Positions 5,696-8,057 of a stretch of DNA of 48,306 bases are shown piece by piece. Under the pieces are notes generated by a model that saw only the letters and a list, made by a program, of their open reading frames with translations, was not told where the DNA came from and did not search any database. The position numbers and the translations under genes are program-made. How positions within the stretch are numbered: position 1 is the first letter of the stretch; each line of letters opens with the position of its first letter. The stretch comes from a virus. The DNA lies in IMG/VR virus record IMGVR_UViG_3300015202_000001; one strand, written 5' to 3'.

Positions 5696-5738
5696 GGTGA
5701 GGTCTCTCTCTCTCTTTTTTCACTTGCCTATGAAGACA

Positions 5739-5767
5739 ATTATACGCCCTAACACTTCTAATGTCAA
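5739..5767 (-). promoter_or_regulatory. Consensus sigma70 promoter TTGACA-N17-TATAAT (leftward)
   Basis: Reverse complement reads TTGACAttagaagtgttagggcgTATAAT; 12/12 match to consensus hexamers, 17-nt spacer. Confidence 0.8.
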
Positions 5768-5789
5768 GCGTTATTCTCGATTAGCTTTA

Positions 5790-5805
5790 TGTGATACCTA
5801 TCACA
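5790..5805. promoter_or_regulatory. Perfect TGTGA-N6-TCACA palindrome (CRP/FNR-type box or operator)
   Basis: TGTGAtacctaTCACA lies between divergent promoters, about 60-65 bp from each predicted start. Confidence 0.55.
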
Positions 5806-5821
5806 TCCGTTTAGTTTAATA

Positions 5822-5850
5822 TTGACGCCGTAAATACTCGTTTCGATAAT
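5822..5850 (+). promoter_or_regulatory. Sigma70-like promoter TTGACG-N17-GATAAT (rightward, into ORF-free DNA)
   Basis: Hexamers and 17-nt spacer read directly. Confidence 0.5.
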
Positions 5851-5994
5851 TATAACGATATTATGCGTTTTAGTAAGTTTTTACGTTGTTTTTTGTATTT
5901 GTACTATTTTTCACAATTAAAATCATAATTCTGCCCTCTTGCACGCTTGTGTCTCGTGATTGTACGTATCCAAAACGCCAGAAACCCACTAAAC

Positions 5995-6070
5995 AGGTCA
6001 TTCAAGCGGCGTCACATGTCATACTGCAATACTTGTATTGGCTTGTCTCTGGATAAGCCTAGAATGACCT
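5995..6070 (+). ncRNA. 76-nt element closed by a 9-bp helix (aggtcattc / gaatgacct) with internal small hairpins
   Basis: Inverted repeat 5995..6003 / 6062..6070; inner ggctt/aagcc stem at 6040..6059; about 140 nt downstream of the 5822 promoter. Confidence 0.3.
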
Positions 6071-6106
6071 TATTTGATGTGTTTGTTTTTACACTCTCTT
6101 TTATTT

Positions 6107-6130
6107 AGTAACTAACTTTTAGTAAGCAAT
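6107..6130. repeat. 24-nt direct repeat AGTAACTAACwTTwAGTAAGCrAT, copy 1
   Basis: 21/24 identical to 6217..6240, exactly 110 bp apart. Confidence 0.7.
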
Positions 6131-6216
6131 CGTTACAAAAATGACGAATTCGTATCCAAAATACTGTTTTCCTGATACATGTCTCCCAGGTAACGCGTTT
6201 TTGCTTTTCGTTCGTA

Positions 6217-6240
6217 AGTAACTAACATTAAGTAAGCGAT
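6217..6240. repeat. 24-nt direct repeat, copy 2
   Basis: See 6107..6130. Confidence 0.7.
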
Positions 6241-6259
6241 TATTGAGTGATACATATTG

Positions 6260-6275
6260 TGTGATACCTATCACG
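6260..6275. promoter_or_regulatory. TGTGA-taccta-TCACg box, second copy of the 5790 site
   Basis: 15/16 identical to 5790..5805. Confidence 0.45.
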
Positions 6276-7203
6276 CTATATGGTGTTAGATGTTATATCT
6301 TAATGTTACGATATAGTGTGTTAGTATTGCGCGCATTACAAAACTATTATAAACGCTTATAAATACTCATAATATCAACATTACATAATGCCCAATAGCA
6401 ATCTAAAATATGCTTAGTATTAATACGTGACATGCAGTTAATGCTATGGTTACAAAAACTGGCTTAAGCCGGCATTGATTACGTGTTTGCAATATCCCAA
6501 GTGATATTTTGCTACGGGTATTATCGTAACGGTTACAACACGTTGTGTGTAGTGTGATACGCATTGATTAATAAACCACATACAATAAGCATAAAATATA
6601 CGTTGTTACTAGAGGGTTGTGTTTCAACTTTTTTCCGTGTGTATGTGAAACATTTTGCGTTACATGCACATAGCGATTATTATAATTGATTGTGTGTATG
6701 TGTGTGTGTTTATTCTTAATGTTAATATGCGTATACTATGTGTGATGTTGTTACATTATGTTTAGTGTTGTTATATATTTATTCTAAATATAAATCATAC
6801 AGACAGGTCGTCGAGTTGTATTTAATTCACACTGAATATGTTTATACGTATTAATATTAATATTTATTTACCATACATTTAACACATATCGCTGTATAAT
6901 ATCTAATCCATTTGCAATAAGCGGTTTAATACATTGTTTTGTTATTTCTAATAGATGTGTACCCACCCCGCCAAAAGTTTTGTCACTCGGTTGGTAATAC
7001 CGCGACTTGTGGTCTAAACAAAAAATATAAAAATAAAGATTTTGGTGGTATTAATTTATCGTTTACTTAGCGCTAATATAACGCGGGAGCATCAATACGT
7101 TAGTCGCAAGATACAAATGGTTTTTAATGAATTTCAAACACATGATCGTCAATTGTTGTTGTTGCAAGGAGGGTGCAATTTTTCGTGTGTATACTGTTTA
7201 CAT

Positions 7204-7219
7204 TGTGAAAAGTTTCACA
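7204..7219. promoter_or_regulatory. Perfect TGTGA-aaagtt-TCACA palindrome, with a third ATTGTGAAA half-site at 7230..7238
   Basis: Read directly; flanks resemble the 42494..42509 site. Confidence 0.5.
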
Positions 7220-7258
7220 ATCCAAATTCATTGTGAAACTAAAAATAATCAAACATAG

Positions 7259-7293
7259 GAAGTCGAGAGATGCGACAGCATCTCGATGACTTC
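7259..7293 (+). ncRNA. Conserved bipartite hairpin, copy B (outer gaagtc/gacttc, same inner helix, loop gaca)
   Basis: Same architecture as 475..509; 5 of the 6 outer base pairs changed, all compensatory. Confidence 0.5.
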
Positions 7294-7338
7294 AACAATC
7301 CAATCTACAATAACCAAACGTATGAAAAAAAGGTCGTG

Positions 7339-7356
7339 AAGCGCGTCAGCGCTTCT
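7339..7356. other. Hairpin gaagcgc-gtca-gcgcttc within an outer ggtc/gacc helix
   Basis: Variant of 785..802 with a compensatory pair. Confidence 0.45.
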
Positions 7357-7521
7357 AAGACCAAAACACCAGTTGAAAAACTATAACCGTCGATGCTAAA
7401 CCGAACGAAGTTCGGAATGTGAACTTGTCGAACTGTACAAGTTGATAACTCAAATTCACAAAAGTGTTAAGTTCATAAATCCAACCTTCCTTGCACGCTT
7501 GAATAACTGCCGTTAGCCAAA

Positions 7522-7549
7522 TCGTGATTACGCCTTCGGCGTGAATACG
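7522..7549. repeat. Conserved 28-nt hairpin motif, copy B
   Basis: 25/28 identical to 625..652; flank gttagccaa here is the reverse complement of ttggctaac flanking copy A. Confidence 0.55.
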
Positions 7550-7590
7550 GCTTGTAAACTACCAAATTATAGTTTTTAATCTGTTTATAG

Positions 7591-7623
7591 GAAAATTCCA
7601 GTCACGACGTGACTGGAATTTTC
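7591..7623. other. Perfect 15-bp hairpin gaaaattccagtcac / gtgactggaattttc
   Basis: Inverted repeat read directly. Confidence 0.7.
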
Positions 7624-7638
7624 TAATTGTTAATTGAT

Positions 7639-7678
7639 TATGTATTGTATATAGTATATGTATTATATATCTATATGG
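7639..7678. repeat. AT-rich TATGTAT-type element, copy B
   Basis: Shares gtatatagtat and tattatata with 405..440. Confidence 0.5.
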
Positions 7679-8010
7679 AAATTATTTTAAGTTCATCAAT
7701 CTGGACTTATCGGGGTACTGTCGTACCCCTCAAGTCCCACTTTTAACCGTTTAACGATTAATAGCCAAAATGCTACGAAGTTGCTGTTTGTTAATTAGGC
7801 GGAGTTTTCAACCCAAAACGTTTAGCTATTTGACAGTCGTTCAAAACTCCAGACCACAATACGTCTACAAGCCTCAAATAAGCCACTTAAAGGCTCATTG
7901 CAGGCCATTGTGTGATGATTGTCCGCAAACACCCAAACGAGGGCATTGCGTGACCTATTTGAACGTCTGTAGATTTAACGCGTTTCTAATGCCACAAACG
8001 GGCGTTTTTG

Positions 8011-8019
8011 TGGTACAAT
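8011..8019 (+). promoter_or_regulatory. Extended -10 element TGgTACAAT upstream of the rightward arm
   Basis: About 40 nt upstream of the HNH-AP2 start; no clear -35. Confidence 0.4.
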
Positions 8020-8057
8020 GCGTAAATCGGTAACTTTTTATTGAAGGGTTGATAATT

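Follow-up and report, generated by a model that had tools for sequence, protein, structure and literature searches.

What is the role of a 2.35-kb stretch of phage DNA that lies between two divergent transcription arms and appears to contain no genes? In the window analysed here, i.e. the whole 48,306-nt stretch of viral DNA, this question is raised by positions 5696-8048, and the point to settle at the outset is whether this region is indeed non-coding. It is. There is not a single ORF of at least 100 aa between these positions, and an independent gene caller also left the 2.39-kb gap empty in a 99.9% identical contig of 48,971 bp. In comparison with L001, which serves as the reference for identity and mismatch figures (the relatives compared are 10-18% diverged), the mismatch by phase is 0.141/0.132/0.138, that is, without codon periodicity; in the flanking genes, third-position mismatch is 2-20 times that at the first and second positions. 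The 30 indels that separate the region from L001 have, for the most part, lengths not divisible by 3, and in the relatives almost every ORF of at least 25 aa is disrupted. The two ORFs that a program had listed here, 7042-7236 and 7770-8033, are both frameshifted or stopped in L001, so that their dismissal in an earlier, sequence-only reading of this DNA, along with its view that no credible ORF is present, holds up; nor does the comparison of related genomes, which that reading had proposed, support any conserved small coding ORF.

Genes hidden in the form of very small ORFs, or under a reassigned stop codon, are highly improbable. Five ORFs of the region survive in L001 (the few still open there measure 32-53 aa), but synonymous change in these five is not in excess, change in the surviving small ORFs is mainly non-synonymous, and no ribosome-binding site was found for them. 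In the relative L024, the gene caller places a 111-aa ORF across the hairpins described below, but this ORF has no match in Pfam and is broken in the window. The phage does carry an unusual tRNA, which, however, is of the class II Leu(UAA) type and not a suppressor, and recoding of any single stop codon (each was tested) opens no long ORF in the region, the longest, obtained when TAA codes for an amino acid, being 147 aa.

The region is found in every relative whose contigs cover its position, which answers the proviso of the sequence-only reading that it might be absent from close relatives. In blocks 5740-6640 and 6851-7050, identity to L001 is 92-100%, and 52%, 32% and 24% of the third codon positions differ from L001 in the neighbouring genes. 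Because the conserved blocks are better kept than these third positions, the region is, on this comparison, under purifying selection. As the relatives combine a small number of haplotypes in mosaic fashion, high conservation could, in part, reflect recent recombination; isolated phages yielded no DNA matches. Could the region nevertheless be a decaying spacer, left over from lost genes or from a tRNA array, with promoters at the edges and nothing functional in between? The distant relative L003, in which nine tRNA genes and three protein genes separate the divergent promoters from the terminase, might be taken to suggest so, as might the variable segment 6641-6850 (73% identity to L001) and a lineage-specific 85-nt insertion in the window. 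Yet tRNA remnants are absent even at E <= 5, the conserved blocks outdo the synonymous sites of the neighbours, a palindrome, a GT tract and a C-rich motif are unchanged amid variable flanks, and hairpins covary, all of which, together with the presence of the region in all relatives with contig coverage, makes mere decay improbable.

We propose, instead, a non-coding control region with three differently working parts, namely, a promoter/operator edge, a centre that would act as DNA and contain an origin, and an array that would give rise to inward-transcribed non-coding RNA. This reading is tentative, with a probability of roughly 0.4. The coordinates and elements listed in the sequence-only reading proved real on re-examination (Table 1), and its general notion of a functional, non-coding region combining several roles is supported, the roles being distributed over three distinct parts. 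Two of its generalizations did not survive: simple counts do not support calling the region signal-dense, as promoter-like sites number 14 vs 11.9 in shuffles and repeated 8-mers, while more frequent than in shuffles of the region itself, are no more frequent than elsewhere in the genome; and the genome is not uniformly tight elsewhere, given a second gene-free stretch of ~1.09 kb at about 12-1104.

Table 1. Features of the gene-free region and of its inverted counterpart (positions in the window; functional names are predictions)
Feature	Position	Strand	Basis or remark
Block A, inverted paralogue of 7285-7760	453..870	-	local alignment
PL, sigma-70-type TTGACA-N17-TATAAT, leftward early genes	5739..5767	-	12/12, sole such match genome-wide
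Operator O1, perfect palindrome TGTGATACCTATCACA	5790..5805	.	CRP-type TGTGA-N6-TCACA
Rightward promoter TTGACG-N17-GATAAT, into gene-free DNA	5822..5850	+	10/12
TTTTTCACAAT, single half-site of ATTGTGAAA word	5907..5917	+	invariant in six contigs
76-nt helix-closed element	5995..6070	+	folds as 4-way junction, z = -2.1
Two 24-nt direct repeats	6107-6130, 6217-6240	+	21/24 identical, 110 bp apart
Most conserved block	6215..6640	.	93% identity to L001; indel-free in four covering lineages; RNA structure signal absent
Operator O2, TGTGATACCTATCACG	6260..6275	.	one mismatch to TGTGA-N6-TCACA
GT-rich tract	6683..6712	+	unchanged in five contigs amid variable surroundings
Least stable 200-bp duplex of genome, candidate unwinding element	6708..6907	.	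nearest-neighbour energy
C-rich motif TACCCACCCCGCCAAAAGTTTT	6958..6981	+	genome-unique
Operator O3, two overlapping palindromes built from three ATTGTGAAA half-sites	7202..7238	.	mostly retained in L001 and L024
Two-tier hairpin T1 (6 bp, 3/2-nt internal loop, 7 bp, tetraloop TGTC)	7259..7293	-	fold
H2, two-tier hairpin then T7, intrinsic-terminator shape for leftward transcripts	7325..7362	-	fold
H5 module, ~105-110 nt, stem-loop core 7522-7549	7478..7590	+	covariance model
H6, 16-bp perfect hairpin	7590..7624	.	block A counterpart 552-584
(TATGTA)n patch with overlapping promoter-like sites; 50-bp stability minimum of genome	7627..7688	.	nearest-neighbour stability
Two-tier hairpin T2, then CACTTTT	7703..7737	+	positional match: reverse complement of 475-509
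Weak inward promoter-like site TTAACA-N16-CATTTT	7767..7794	-	8/12, read by eye
Extended -10 promoter TGGTACAAT for HNH-AP2 gene	8011..8019	+	predicted from sequence

At the left edge (5739-5850), two back-to-back host-type promoters would share a 16-bp operator. Both promoters are present as the sequence-only reading described them. The -35 element of PL is kept in 6/6 contigs, with TATAAT or TATTAT at -10, and this predicted sigma-70-type promoter stands upstream of a correctly oriented gene; the rightward promoter is kept in L001 and L014 and is weaker (ACGACA/GATACT) in L008, L015 and L016. Operator O1 is invariant in 6/6 covering contigs despite differing flanks. A 9-nt deletion alters its distance to PL; the distance to the rightward promoter is constant, with the centre of O1 at -59.5 to -61.5 (~-60) relative to the predicted rightward start, a spacing that is held across lineages. 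A perfect palindrome with a conserved spacing of ~59.5-61.5 bp upstream of the (predicted) start resembles the arrangement in CRP class I promoters such as lac P1 (-61.5). Unlike lac P1, the phage promoter may serve in a host that lacks CRP, and the site could equally be the operator of a phage repressor. Probably, a dimeric protein, either of the CRP family or a DNA-binding protein of the phage, acts from O1 to gate or activate rightward early transcription. The genetic switch surmised in the sequence-only reading thus finds a plausible place in the promoters and the invariant operator, but it is confined to the left edge.

The three TGTGA-N6-TCACA palindromes are likewise there, those at 5790 and 7204 being perfect and the one at 6260 carrying 1 mismatch; genome-wide, there are 11 such sites vs 2.3 expected, which, as far as sequence goes, fits CRP-type operators. 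In L001 and L008, the central CC of O2 is replaced by GG with the half-sites retained, and 4/6 of the exact copies of ATTGTGAAA in the genome fall in the region. No protein regulator was recognised next to these sites, in keeping with the sequence-only reading: the adjacent 85-aa protein has no match in Pfam or PHROG, and its confident structural model (pLDDT 91) resembles no solved DNA-binding fold. Possibly, the regulator is among the early orphan genes, unrecognised. At the opposite edge of the region, L001, L023 and L024 all preserve the TACAAT hexamer of the predicted promoter 8011..8019 as well as its T at -15; only L001 has the complete TGG, the other two showing TGA.

The centre of the region (about 5850-7250) most likely acts as DNA and not as protein or folded RNA. 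Across 5700-7200, the MFE z-scores range from +1.5 to -2.8 and covariation is lacking, the compensatory-pair test on 5975-7105 being negative, so that the idea of a long leader or non-coding RNA forming a single structure over the whole region finds no support. The 76-nt helix-closed element stands in part. It folds, and its third hairpin (6040-6059) is supported by covariation, with pair 6045:6054 appearing as G.U, G-C or A-U across three lineages, but the closing helix and hairpin 2 are each mismatched in one lineage. Similarly, the 24-nt repeats are real but their separation is not general: they are side by side in all relatives, the 85-nt spacer 6131-6214 being found in this lineage alone. 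The word TTTAGTAA of these repeats recurs at 5869. The GT-rich tract, too, is where it was reported, with (TG)9.5 at 6691-6709, and GTGTGTAT has just three occurrences in the genome, at 6637, 6692 and 7185, all of them plus-strand. The adjoining stability minimum has a nearest-neighbour free energy of -1.10 vs the genome mean of -1.31 (sd 0.054) and a GC content of 23-27%. In the C-rich motif, the core 6959-6977 is invariant in 5/5 covering contigs, the last few bases differing in two; a 19/22 match in the gene-free stretch of L003 is, on its own, non-significant (p = 0.135), and the sum of the top five matches exceeds that in shuffles.

Our best guess is that the centre is a replication origin, with a cos site as the rival. 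Replication would proceed bidirectionally from DNA opened with the help of transcription from the rightward promoter, and the reiterated short words and three operator-like palindromes would lie to either side of the genome's most readily melting 200 bp. We lean to an origin because of the AT-rich minimum, the location between outward-transcribed arms, and the dispensability of the other, and only other, origin-like feature, an array of 21 x 10 bp at 30724-30941; this array is dispensable, since a homing endonuclease gene replaces it in L022. Both arms are transcribed outward from the centre and the cumulative GC skew turns there, so that an AT-rich candidate unwinding element coincides with a strand-bias switch, skew and orientation being confounded with transcription. 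Of the two functions between which the sequence-only reading had left the choice, the AT-rich minimum and the divergent arms thus favour the origin, but some usual hallmarks are absent: instead of iterons (at least three direct repeats of ~17-22 bp), the region offers just a pair of 24-nt repeats and some 8-9-nt words, and DnaA boxes are not enriched (10 vs 11.7 expected genome-wide, one of them in the region). No replication initiator gene was recognised among the ORFs scanned, and the initial rightward transcript is predicted to be U-rich, hence poor for R-loop priming.

There are precedents for such an arrangement. In the Lactococcus phage c2 (Ceduovirus), an early promoter fires into the intergenic origin region. 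The likeness to the present case consists in an AT-rich gene-free stretch between divergent blocks; the differences are that the c2 region measures ~0.6 kb vs 2.35 kb here, that there is no sequence similarity, and that c2 is not known to have paired inverted hairpin modules. The c2 origin itself is contained in the non-coding AT-rich stretch between the divergent early and late blocks (PMC7150918). In the PLE satellite of V. cholerae, a 2.7-kb non-coding region between divergent operons contains repeat families and the origin, for which the repeats and gene orientation argued before there was experimental proof (PMC7145576). The multi-kilobase gene-free region between divergent operons is common to both, the origin being, in our case, predicted from sequence. 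The PLE, however, has clear iterons, to which a RepA_N initiator encoded alongside binds, whereas here we find short reiterated words and recognise no initiator.

Alternatively, the centre could be a packaging site, either cos or the boundary of a terminal repeat, at which terminase and HNH protein would cut at or near 6958-6981, the nearby words and palindromes serving as sites for the small terminase and bending proteins, as in lambda cosQ-cosN-cosB or the cos of c2. The HNH gene 9622-10020 extends over the beginning of the large terminase gene (10013), an arrangement that Kala et al. reportedly described in 2014 as typical of HNH-assisted cos packaging, and, again as in lambda/HK97-type phages, a non-coding stretch rich in repeats and palindromes lies upstream of the small-terminase-like gene (8750-9178). 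The C-rich 11-mer occurs once in the genome, does not vary among five contigs and is partly preserved in the gene-free DNA of L003; it is GC-rich and could be a cohesive end, and one contig, L016, ends 10 nt past the motif. In c2-type phages, cos regions also comprise direct and inverted repeats and palindromes (PMC7150918). However, the candidate site is, unlike in lambda and HK97, 1.8 kb away from the small-terminase gene, with the hairpin array and a homing endonuclease gene intervening; one contig end among ~eight in the region is at chance level, as is, approximately, the frequency of the motif pattern in bacterial genomes; the L003 match does not reach significance by itself; and the assemblies close as a circle, with a 127-nt overlap. 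We consider packaging at this site rather unlikely.

The right third of the region is of a different nature: to judge from the alignments, it is an array of stem-loops, ~475 nt long, that compensatory change has preserved. The folding z-score of this block (7259-7760) is -8.6 on either strand. Within 7250-7745, 15 pairs are changed on both sides, compared with 6.3 +/- 1.9 for shuffles (0/500) and with 1-5 for slid controls, the covariation coming from three lineages and the structure being derived from the same sequences, and 95% of cells are paired, as would befit a structured RNA (or single-strand DNA); G.U vs A.C counts reveal no strand preference. T1, which contains one of three genome copies of ATCGRGRTRCTRTCGYAYCYCTC (vs 0 expected), all with identical fold architecture, has two compensatory pairs in L001 and L024. 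The GTCA loop of H2 is invariant and its stem covaries in L024, where a run of C11 separates the stem from the T-run. H5 shows one compensatory change and two wobble-to-Watson-Crick changes, H6 has three compensatory pairs in L024 (hand alignment), and the inner stem of T2 is replaced through compensatory changes in L024. Two hairpins are swapped wholesale for unrelated hairpins in the relatives; in L001, an unrelated 13-bp hairpin occupies the place of H6. The shape of an intrinsic terminator (a stem-loop followed by at least 5 T) is seen in H2 on the minus strand, with T7, and in its inverted paralogue at 776-816 on the plus strand, with CC and then T5; it is marginal at 7590-7624 and 7703-7737, and the other hairpins do not fit. 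A covariance-model search with 4227 Rfam models, including tRNA, GOLLD, ROOL, 6S and c4, which the sequence-only reading had suggested, identified no family, the best match in the region (E = 0.043, 23.7 bits vs a threshold of 90) falling short of the gathering threshold. The proposed leader or non-coding RNA locus accordingly narrows down to the conserved structure array of the right third and does not extend to the rest of the region. Neither a CRISPR array nor a retron accounts for the repeats, which are just two in number and adjacent in the relatives; among the ~40/65 ORFs scanned (those other than the structural genes after the terminase), there are no cas genes and no reverse transcriptase, a Cas4-type nuclease being the sole cas-like match.

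This array has a relative within the same genome. The sequence-only reading had noticed that the block 7259..7730 is paralogous to 475..802; the paralogy is real, but it is inverted and larger, 7285-7760 aligning with 870-453 of the minus strand over 382 columns with 74.6% identity (score 173.5 vs 34.7 +/- 5.4 for shuffles). H5 aligns with the reverse complement of 590-705, and its covariance model finds exactly two copies in the genome, at 130.6 and 114.9 bits. In both copies, the two-tier hairpin with the T-run is terminator-shaped for inward transcription. Block A is headed by a strong inward promoter-like site, TTGACA-N16-TATTTT at 370-397 (+), with a perfect -35 and a TG-extended -10; its weak counterpart by the right-hand block, 7767..7794, is kept in L001 and has TTACCA as the -35 in L024. 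The two inverted copies bracket the whole early domain, each with a promoter-like site at the outer end and a two-tier hairpin with T-run at the inner end. Each may encode a ~420-nt structured non-coding RNA, transcribed inwards, and the unit could mark and insulate the boundary of the early genes with the middle/late operons.

The same geometry, however, suits another explanation, namely, that rightward transcription from 5822-5850 yields one long untranslated leader spanning the entire region and that the paired modules, sense to outward transcription, are nut- or put-like elements that let RNA polymerase pass hairpin terminators into the middle/late operons. In lambda (nutL/nutR) and HK022 (putL/putR), paralogous cis elements, inverted relative to each other, are found one per divergent early operon, and put acts as an RNA of two stem-loops. 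Here, too, H5 and the entire block exist as inverted copies, one in each divergent operon, with the same orientation relative to transcription exiting the early domain; a 15-16-bp perfect hairpin directly follows each H5 module, and the rightward promoter is conserved. But the modules are not promoter-proximal, the early promoters lying 1.4 kb and 4.9 kb upstream of them, they are far larger, at ~420-475 nt with 6-7 stem-loops, they show no similarity to nut (boxA/boxB) or put and no Rfam match, the sole hairpins with clear T-runs face inwards, and the late genes have strong promoters of their own (8011-8019 and 8663-8691). We regard the leader as a doubtful explanation.

Returning to the inward non-coding RNA, its closest analogues would be the large RNAs GOLLD and ROOL and the antisense RNAs P1 c4 and P4 CI, which are phage-borne and non-coding like the present candidate of several hundred nucleotides; in relatives, RNAs of this sort are located beside tRNA genes. 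The difference is that the block consists of simple stem-loops in a row, without an ornate multi-junction fold, and the paired inverted modules have no Rfam counterpart. It is conceivable, though we would put this forward with considerable reserve, that the modules, paired and convergent in orientation, represent a new class of phage structured RNA or boundary element and that the centre is a transcription-gated origin under a CRP-type site. If so, the modules could set the timing of, or insulate, the change from early to middle/late transcription, by an antisense, terminator-based or put-like read-through mechanism, and the CRP-type site would link phage replication to host physiology.

Evidence against inward transcription of the modules should also be noted. 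The inward promoter-like site of the right-hand block is weak (8/12), and the (TATGTA)n patch includes an outward promoter conserved in three lineages, reading TTGTTA-17-TATAGT on the plus strand of the window and, by eye, TTGACA-18-TATAGT in L001 and TTGATA-17-TATTAT in L024; the patch also holds a 10/12 site on the minus strand, at 7690..7662.

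The gene-free stretch at 5696-8048, which sits at the point where the two transcription arms diverge, is filed here as a phage intergenic control region, with promoters and an operator at its left edge (5739-5850), a centre (approximately 5850-7250) and a right third consisting of a hairpin block. The window is a complete phage-type genome with a circular assembly, its first 127 nt being repeated at the end. Searches of near and distant sensitivity among 50,697 phage records revealed no DNA similarity to isolated phages, the large terminase shares no more than 33% identity with its counterpart in any isolated phage (Thermus phages), and a search with it in genome_contigs yielded no host or prophage relatives; the phage belongs to an uncultivated lineage without a close isolated relative.

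The relatives are metagenomic contigs: L001 came from a terminase search of IMG/VR; L006, L007 (identical to L001) and L008 from scanning a 23-mer of the region against JGI metagenomes; and L012-L016, L023 and L024 via homology to the 85-aa and HNH-AP2 proteins on either flank. Samples containing the phage are JGI 3300015024, 3300010331, 3300009695 and 3300009774, the runs ERR4837128, SRR24581285, SRR24581287 and SRR8842249, and the ERZ2724xxxx and ERZ2728xxxx assemblies. Of the relatives, L012 and L013 are the same phage as the window (99.9-100% identical), and the remaining relatives are 82-94% identical and jointly span the whole region, so that 5696-7105 is covered by four to five lineages and 7105-8048 by three (window, L001/L006, L024), joined by L023 from position 7619. 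The two-arm layout recurs in L003, a distant relative whose terminase shows 49% identity. Among the HNH-AP2 homologues, only L023 and L024 were useful as extra lineages; this gene is a mobile homing endonuclease, and many of its homologues therefore lie at other genome sites. Paralogues approximately 72% identical occupy two places in the window and are found in contigs L017-L022; the sister contig carries a paralogue with 72% identity to the copy in the window, and the sites differ in relatives (beside DnaE; at the site of the tandem array). The family is actively mobile within the phage group.

The sequence-only reading had seen no credible ORF in these 2.35 kb, and the comparison with L001 bears this out. 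Conservation is nucleotide-level and not codon-periodic, the mismatch rate being 0.141, 0.132 and 0.138 by phase, whereas variability at third positions exceeds that at first and second positions by a factor of 2-20 in each of the flanking genes. The 30 indels that separate the region from L001 are mostly not multiples of 3; almost all ORFs of at least 25 aa are frameshifted or stopped in L001, including both track ORFs (7042..7236 and 7770..8033), which had already been dismissed; the five ORFs that are open there show mostly non-synonymous change and no ribosome-binding sites; and an independent gene caller left the gap uncalled. Stop-codon recoding was rejected, given that reassignment of any single stop opens nothing longer than 147 aa and that the odd tRNA of this genome is not a suppressor. 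The gene in question (46.5 bits) encodes a tRNA whose variable arm is long and whose anticodon loop (CUUAAAAA) comprises 8 nt, with a four-base anticodon as read by ARAGORN; the simplest view is a tRNA of class II, Leu(UAA)-type, whose loop is expanded. Because L003 carries tRNA arrays at the corresponding place (nine genes at 6535-9076, between the arms and the terminase), tRNA remnants were sought in the region, and none were found. An Rfam scan of the region gave no credible family match at the gathering threshold or at an E-value threshold of 5. The epithet "signal-dense" had to be dropped, as neither promoter-like sites nor repeated 8-mers are exceptionally numerous.

Conservation is higher in the non-coding region than in the genes beside it: identity to L001 is 92-100% in the blocks 5740-6640 and 6851-7050, and third codon positions differ from L001 by 52% in the left gene and, in the two right genes, by 32% and 24%. 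The relatives are, however, mosaics of a few haplotype blocks, and recombination history therefore contributes to this contrast; small elements that stay invariant amid variable flanks are stronger evidence of function than block identity. An 85-nt insertion separating the two 24-nt repeats is present in the window lineage only and holds the short palindromes ACGAATTCGT and AACGCGTT.

Features of the region, of its inverted counterpart and of the surrounding genome (window coordinates; modules are listed in the order common to both copies, read outward from the early genes, with 5 and 6 swapped in block A)
Feature	Position	Strand	Description
Plus-strand arm	8049-29205	+	HNH-AP2 endonuclease, small-terminase-like protein, tRNA, HNH protein, large terminase, portal, tail genes
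Minus-strand arm	from 5695 leftwards via junction to 29515	-	nine orphan early genes first; then ThyX, Cas4-like nuclease, MoxR/CobT pair, endolysin, DnaE-type polymerase, DnaB-type helicase, primase
Leftward promoter	5767..5739	-	12/12 consensus, only such match in genome
Perfect palindrome TGTGATACCTATCACA	5790-5805		between the two promoters; identical in six of six contigs
Rightward promoter	5822..5850	+	10/12 consensus
Insertion	6131-6214		window lineage only
Word GTGTGTAT		+	three copies, none elsewhere in genome
Word CTTAATGTTA			three copies
Word TTTAGTAA			three copies
24-nt repeats			two copies, counted among the reiterated words
C-rich motif	6958-6981		unique in genome, invariant
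Module 1			two-tier hairpin H2, loop GTCA
Module 2			short hairpin, sequence differs between copies
Module 3			~105-nt module (H5), in both copies
Module 4			15-16 bp perfect hairpin, sequences unrelated, then TGTTAATT
Module 5			(TATGTA)n patch; the two patches are the genome's two least stable 50-bp windows
Module 6			two-tier hairpin: 6 bp, 3/2-nt internal loop, 7 bp, TRTC loop
Gene-free stretch with block A	12-1104		~1.09 kb, far end of early gene cluster
Inward promoter of block A	370-397		TTGACA-N16-TATTTT with TG; points against the arm
Leftward promoter	929..901	-	its -35 lies inside a TGTGA-N6-TCACA-like site, 924-939
Stem-loop series	5218-5454		five consecutive stem-loops after first early gene, stems 9-16 bp
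HNH-AP2 paralogues	8049-8528, 36974-37459		homing endonuclease
Promoter	8663-8691		TTGACA-N17-TACAAT with TG, upstream of small-terminase-like gene
tRNA gene	9328-9414		class II, Leu(UAA)-type most simply
Tandem array	30724-30941		21 phased 10-bp repeats (TTTTAGAAAC)
Example stems	16210-16240, 27921-27948, 32612-32641, 41550-41580, 46459-46491		whole-window survey

At the left edge, both promoters named by the sequence-only reading are present, the rightward one as TTGACG-N17-GATAAT. In L008, L015 and L016, a 9-nt deletion brings the palindrome between them nearer to the leftward promoter and leaves its distance from the rightward promoter unaltered. Given a predicted start at 5857-5859, the palindrome is centred at -59.5 to -61.5, where class I activator sites of CRP classically lie. 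Sites of the type TGTGA-N6-TCACA, with at most one mismatch, number 11 in the genome against 2.3 expected, and three of them fall within the region, as had been claimed; 4 of the 6 exact ATTGTGAAA half-sites in the genome are also found here, and at 7202-7238 three such half-sites make two overlapping palindromes. A second operator copy (6260-6275) keeps the half-sites, with the central CC changed to GG in two lineages. We conclude that a dimeric DNA-binding protein, either host CRP or a phage-encoded one, probably acts at the left edge; the invariance of the operator and its spacing make this a directly testable regulatory hypothesis. The adjacent 85-aa protein was rejected as the regulator, being no recognisable DNA binder and having no Pfam or PHROG match; its AlphaFold model (pLDDT 91) consists of a helix, six strands and a helix and has no significant PDB match. 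In L003, at 5640-5810, a 12/12 promoter faces an 11/12 promoter across a 14-bp perfect palindrome. The near-consensus promoter upstream of the small-terminase-like gene is kept in L001, so that unmodified host polymerase may transcribe the structural operon.

In the centre, MFE z-scores range from +1.5 to -2.8 and alignment folding gives essentially no compensatory pairs, so that conservation there is at the level of sequence. The 76-nt helix-closed element proposed at 5995..6070 does fold (z = -2.1), but its sole supported part is the third hairpin (6040-6059, where the pair 6045:6054 is G.U, G-C or A-U), hairpin 2 and the closing helix taking one mismatch each, in one lineage. The two 24-nt direct repeats noticed earlier are there, and the GT-rich tract is an invariant (TG)n tract. 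The segment 6708-6907 is the least stable 200-bp duplex of the genome, approximately 3.9 sd below the mean. DnaA boxes show no enrichment.

The observation itself is confirmed, and the broad menu offered by the sequence-only reading (leader or ncRNA, switch, origin, cos, or a combination) is partly supported. We prefer, at a probability of about 40%, to read the centre as a replication origin, because it lies between arms that are transcribed away from it, contains the stability minimum and has precedents in the Lactococcus phage c2, where a non-coding region separates the early and late blocks (PMC7150918), and in the Vibrio cholerae satellite PLE, with its 2.7-kb non-coding region (PMC7145576). 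The chief objection to placing the origin here was the tandem array, which sits in a gap of 225 bp, downstream of the genes for primase, helicase and polymerase; in the relative L022, however, this array is precisely swapped for an HNH-AP2 homing endonuclease gene, hence it is dispensable and the objection is removed. The array itself could be curved DNA, a centromere-like site or a secondary origin; the 246-aa protein encoded beside it has no family match and appears, from its sequence, to be a membrane protein carrying a zinc ribbon. A cos site in the centre is a serious rival to the origin: an HNH gene overlaps the start of the terminase, and, alone among the elements, the C-rich motif has a 19/22 match in the gene-free stretch of L003 (3865-5123, 1.26 kb, AT-rich, within the leftward arm), although this match taken by itself is not significant. 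Homology of the centre as a whole with that stretch was rejected, since the top match is not significant and only the sum of the top five exceeds shuffles; nor does the C-rich motif serve as a wider signature, its matches in genome_contigs being at about chance level and viral_contigs giving L001 only. Contig ends do not inform on cos: L012, the sister contig of 48,971 bp, by coordinate arithmetic, appears to be broken within the array at 30.7 kb.

In the right third, it is the structure, not the sequence, that is kept. The hairpin block (7259-7760) folds with z = -8.6 relative to shuffles, on either strand. In the covariation test, which was confined to local hairpins in an alignment of the window, L001 and L024, 95% of cells pair, and pairs changed on both sides number 15, as compared to 6.3 +/- 1.9 in shuffles (0 of 500) and 1-5 with slid partners. 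Specifically, L024 shows three compensatory pairs in the hairpin 7590-7624, and L001 has an unrelated 13-bp hairpin in its place. Replacement of this kind is also seen outside the region, at 5264-5306; in the series of stem-loops that follows the first early gene, it is the second that gives way to an unrelated hairpin at the same position in relatives.

The most original feature of the region is the pairing of inverted hairpin modules that flank all early genes. The paralogy of the hairpin block with 475..802 that had been proposed was found, but with a greater extent and an inverted orientation: block B (7285-7760, plus strand) aligns with block A (870-453, minus strand) over 382 columns with 74.6% identity and a score of 173.5, against 34.7 +/- 5.4 for shuffles and only 51.5 for the same-strand alignment. 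The two-tier hairpin of module 6 occurs three times in the genome where no copy is expected, and its stems are fully covarying; a covariance model of H5 turned up nothing beyond the two known copies, and nothing in L003. Composite modules in inverted orientation thus bracket the early genes together with the centre of the non-coding region. A single hairpin in each copy is directly followed by a T-run; it lies at the inner end and points inwards. Block A also has a strong inward promoter. Together, these features suggest that each copy might be transcribed inwards into a structured RNA of approximately 420 nt. Against this, the inward promoter of block B is weak, an outward promoter in the (TATGTA)n patch is conserved, and the wobble-pair counts (G.U versus A.C) show no strand preference.

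In its logic, the region resembles the non-coding regions of c2 and PLE, lambda-type cos regions, CRP class I promoters, and the nutL/nutR or putL/putR geometry, but by sequence it is no member of any of these. Unlike PLE-like origins, it lacks iterons with an initiator gene, and unlike the nut and put systems, it lacks a promoter-proximal nut or put. Our functional assignments are tentative, at somewhat below even odds, and nothing yet shows that the mechanism falls outside known categories. Annotation usually passes over long gene-free stretches of phage genomes, and the few that have been studied (c2, PLE, lambda) harbour the origin, packaging site and developmental switch. The elements described here are conserved, unannotated and testable; should the paired modules be RNAs or boundary elements, they would constitute a new family of phage regulatory elements and provide a handle on the separation of early, middle and late transcription in phages without recognisable regulators.

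Stems of at least 9 bp are about twice as frequent across the genome as in shuffles (113 versus ~51). Many of them are perfect palindromes (12-15 bp, loop of 3-4 nt); most are located at gene boundaries, and several within ORFs. At the window junction (1/48187), L012, which is 99.9% identical, has 651 extra bp (15666-16316) with a 131-aa ORF, falling precisely where the window ends join, and a third contig, L013, which is 100% identical, likewise ends at window position 1.
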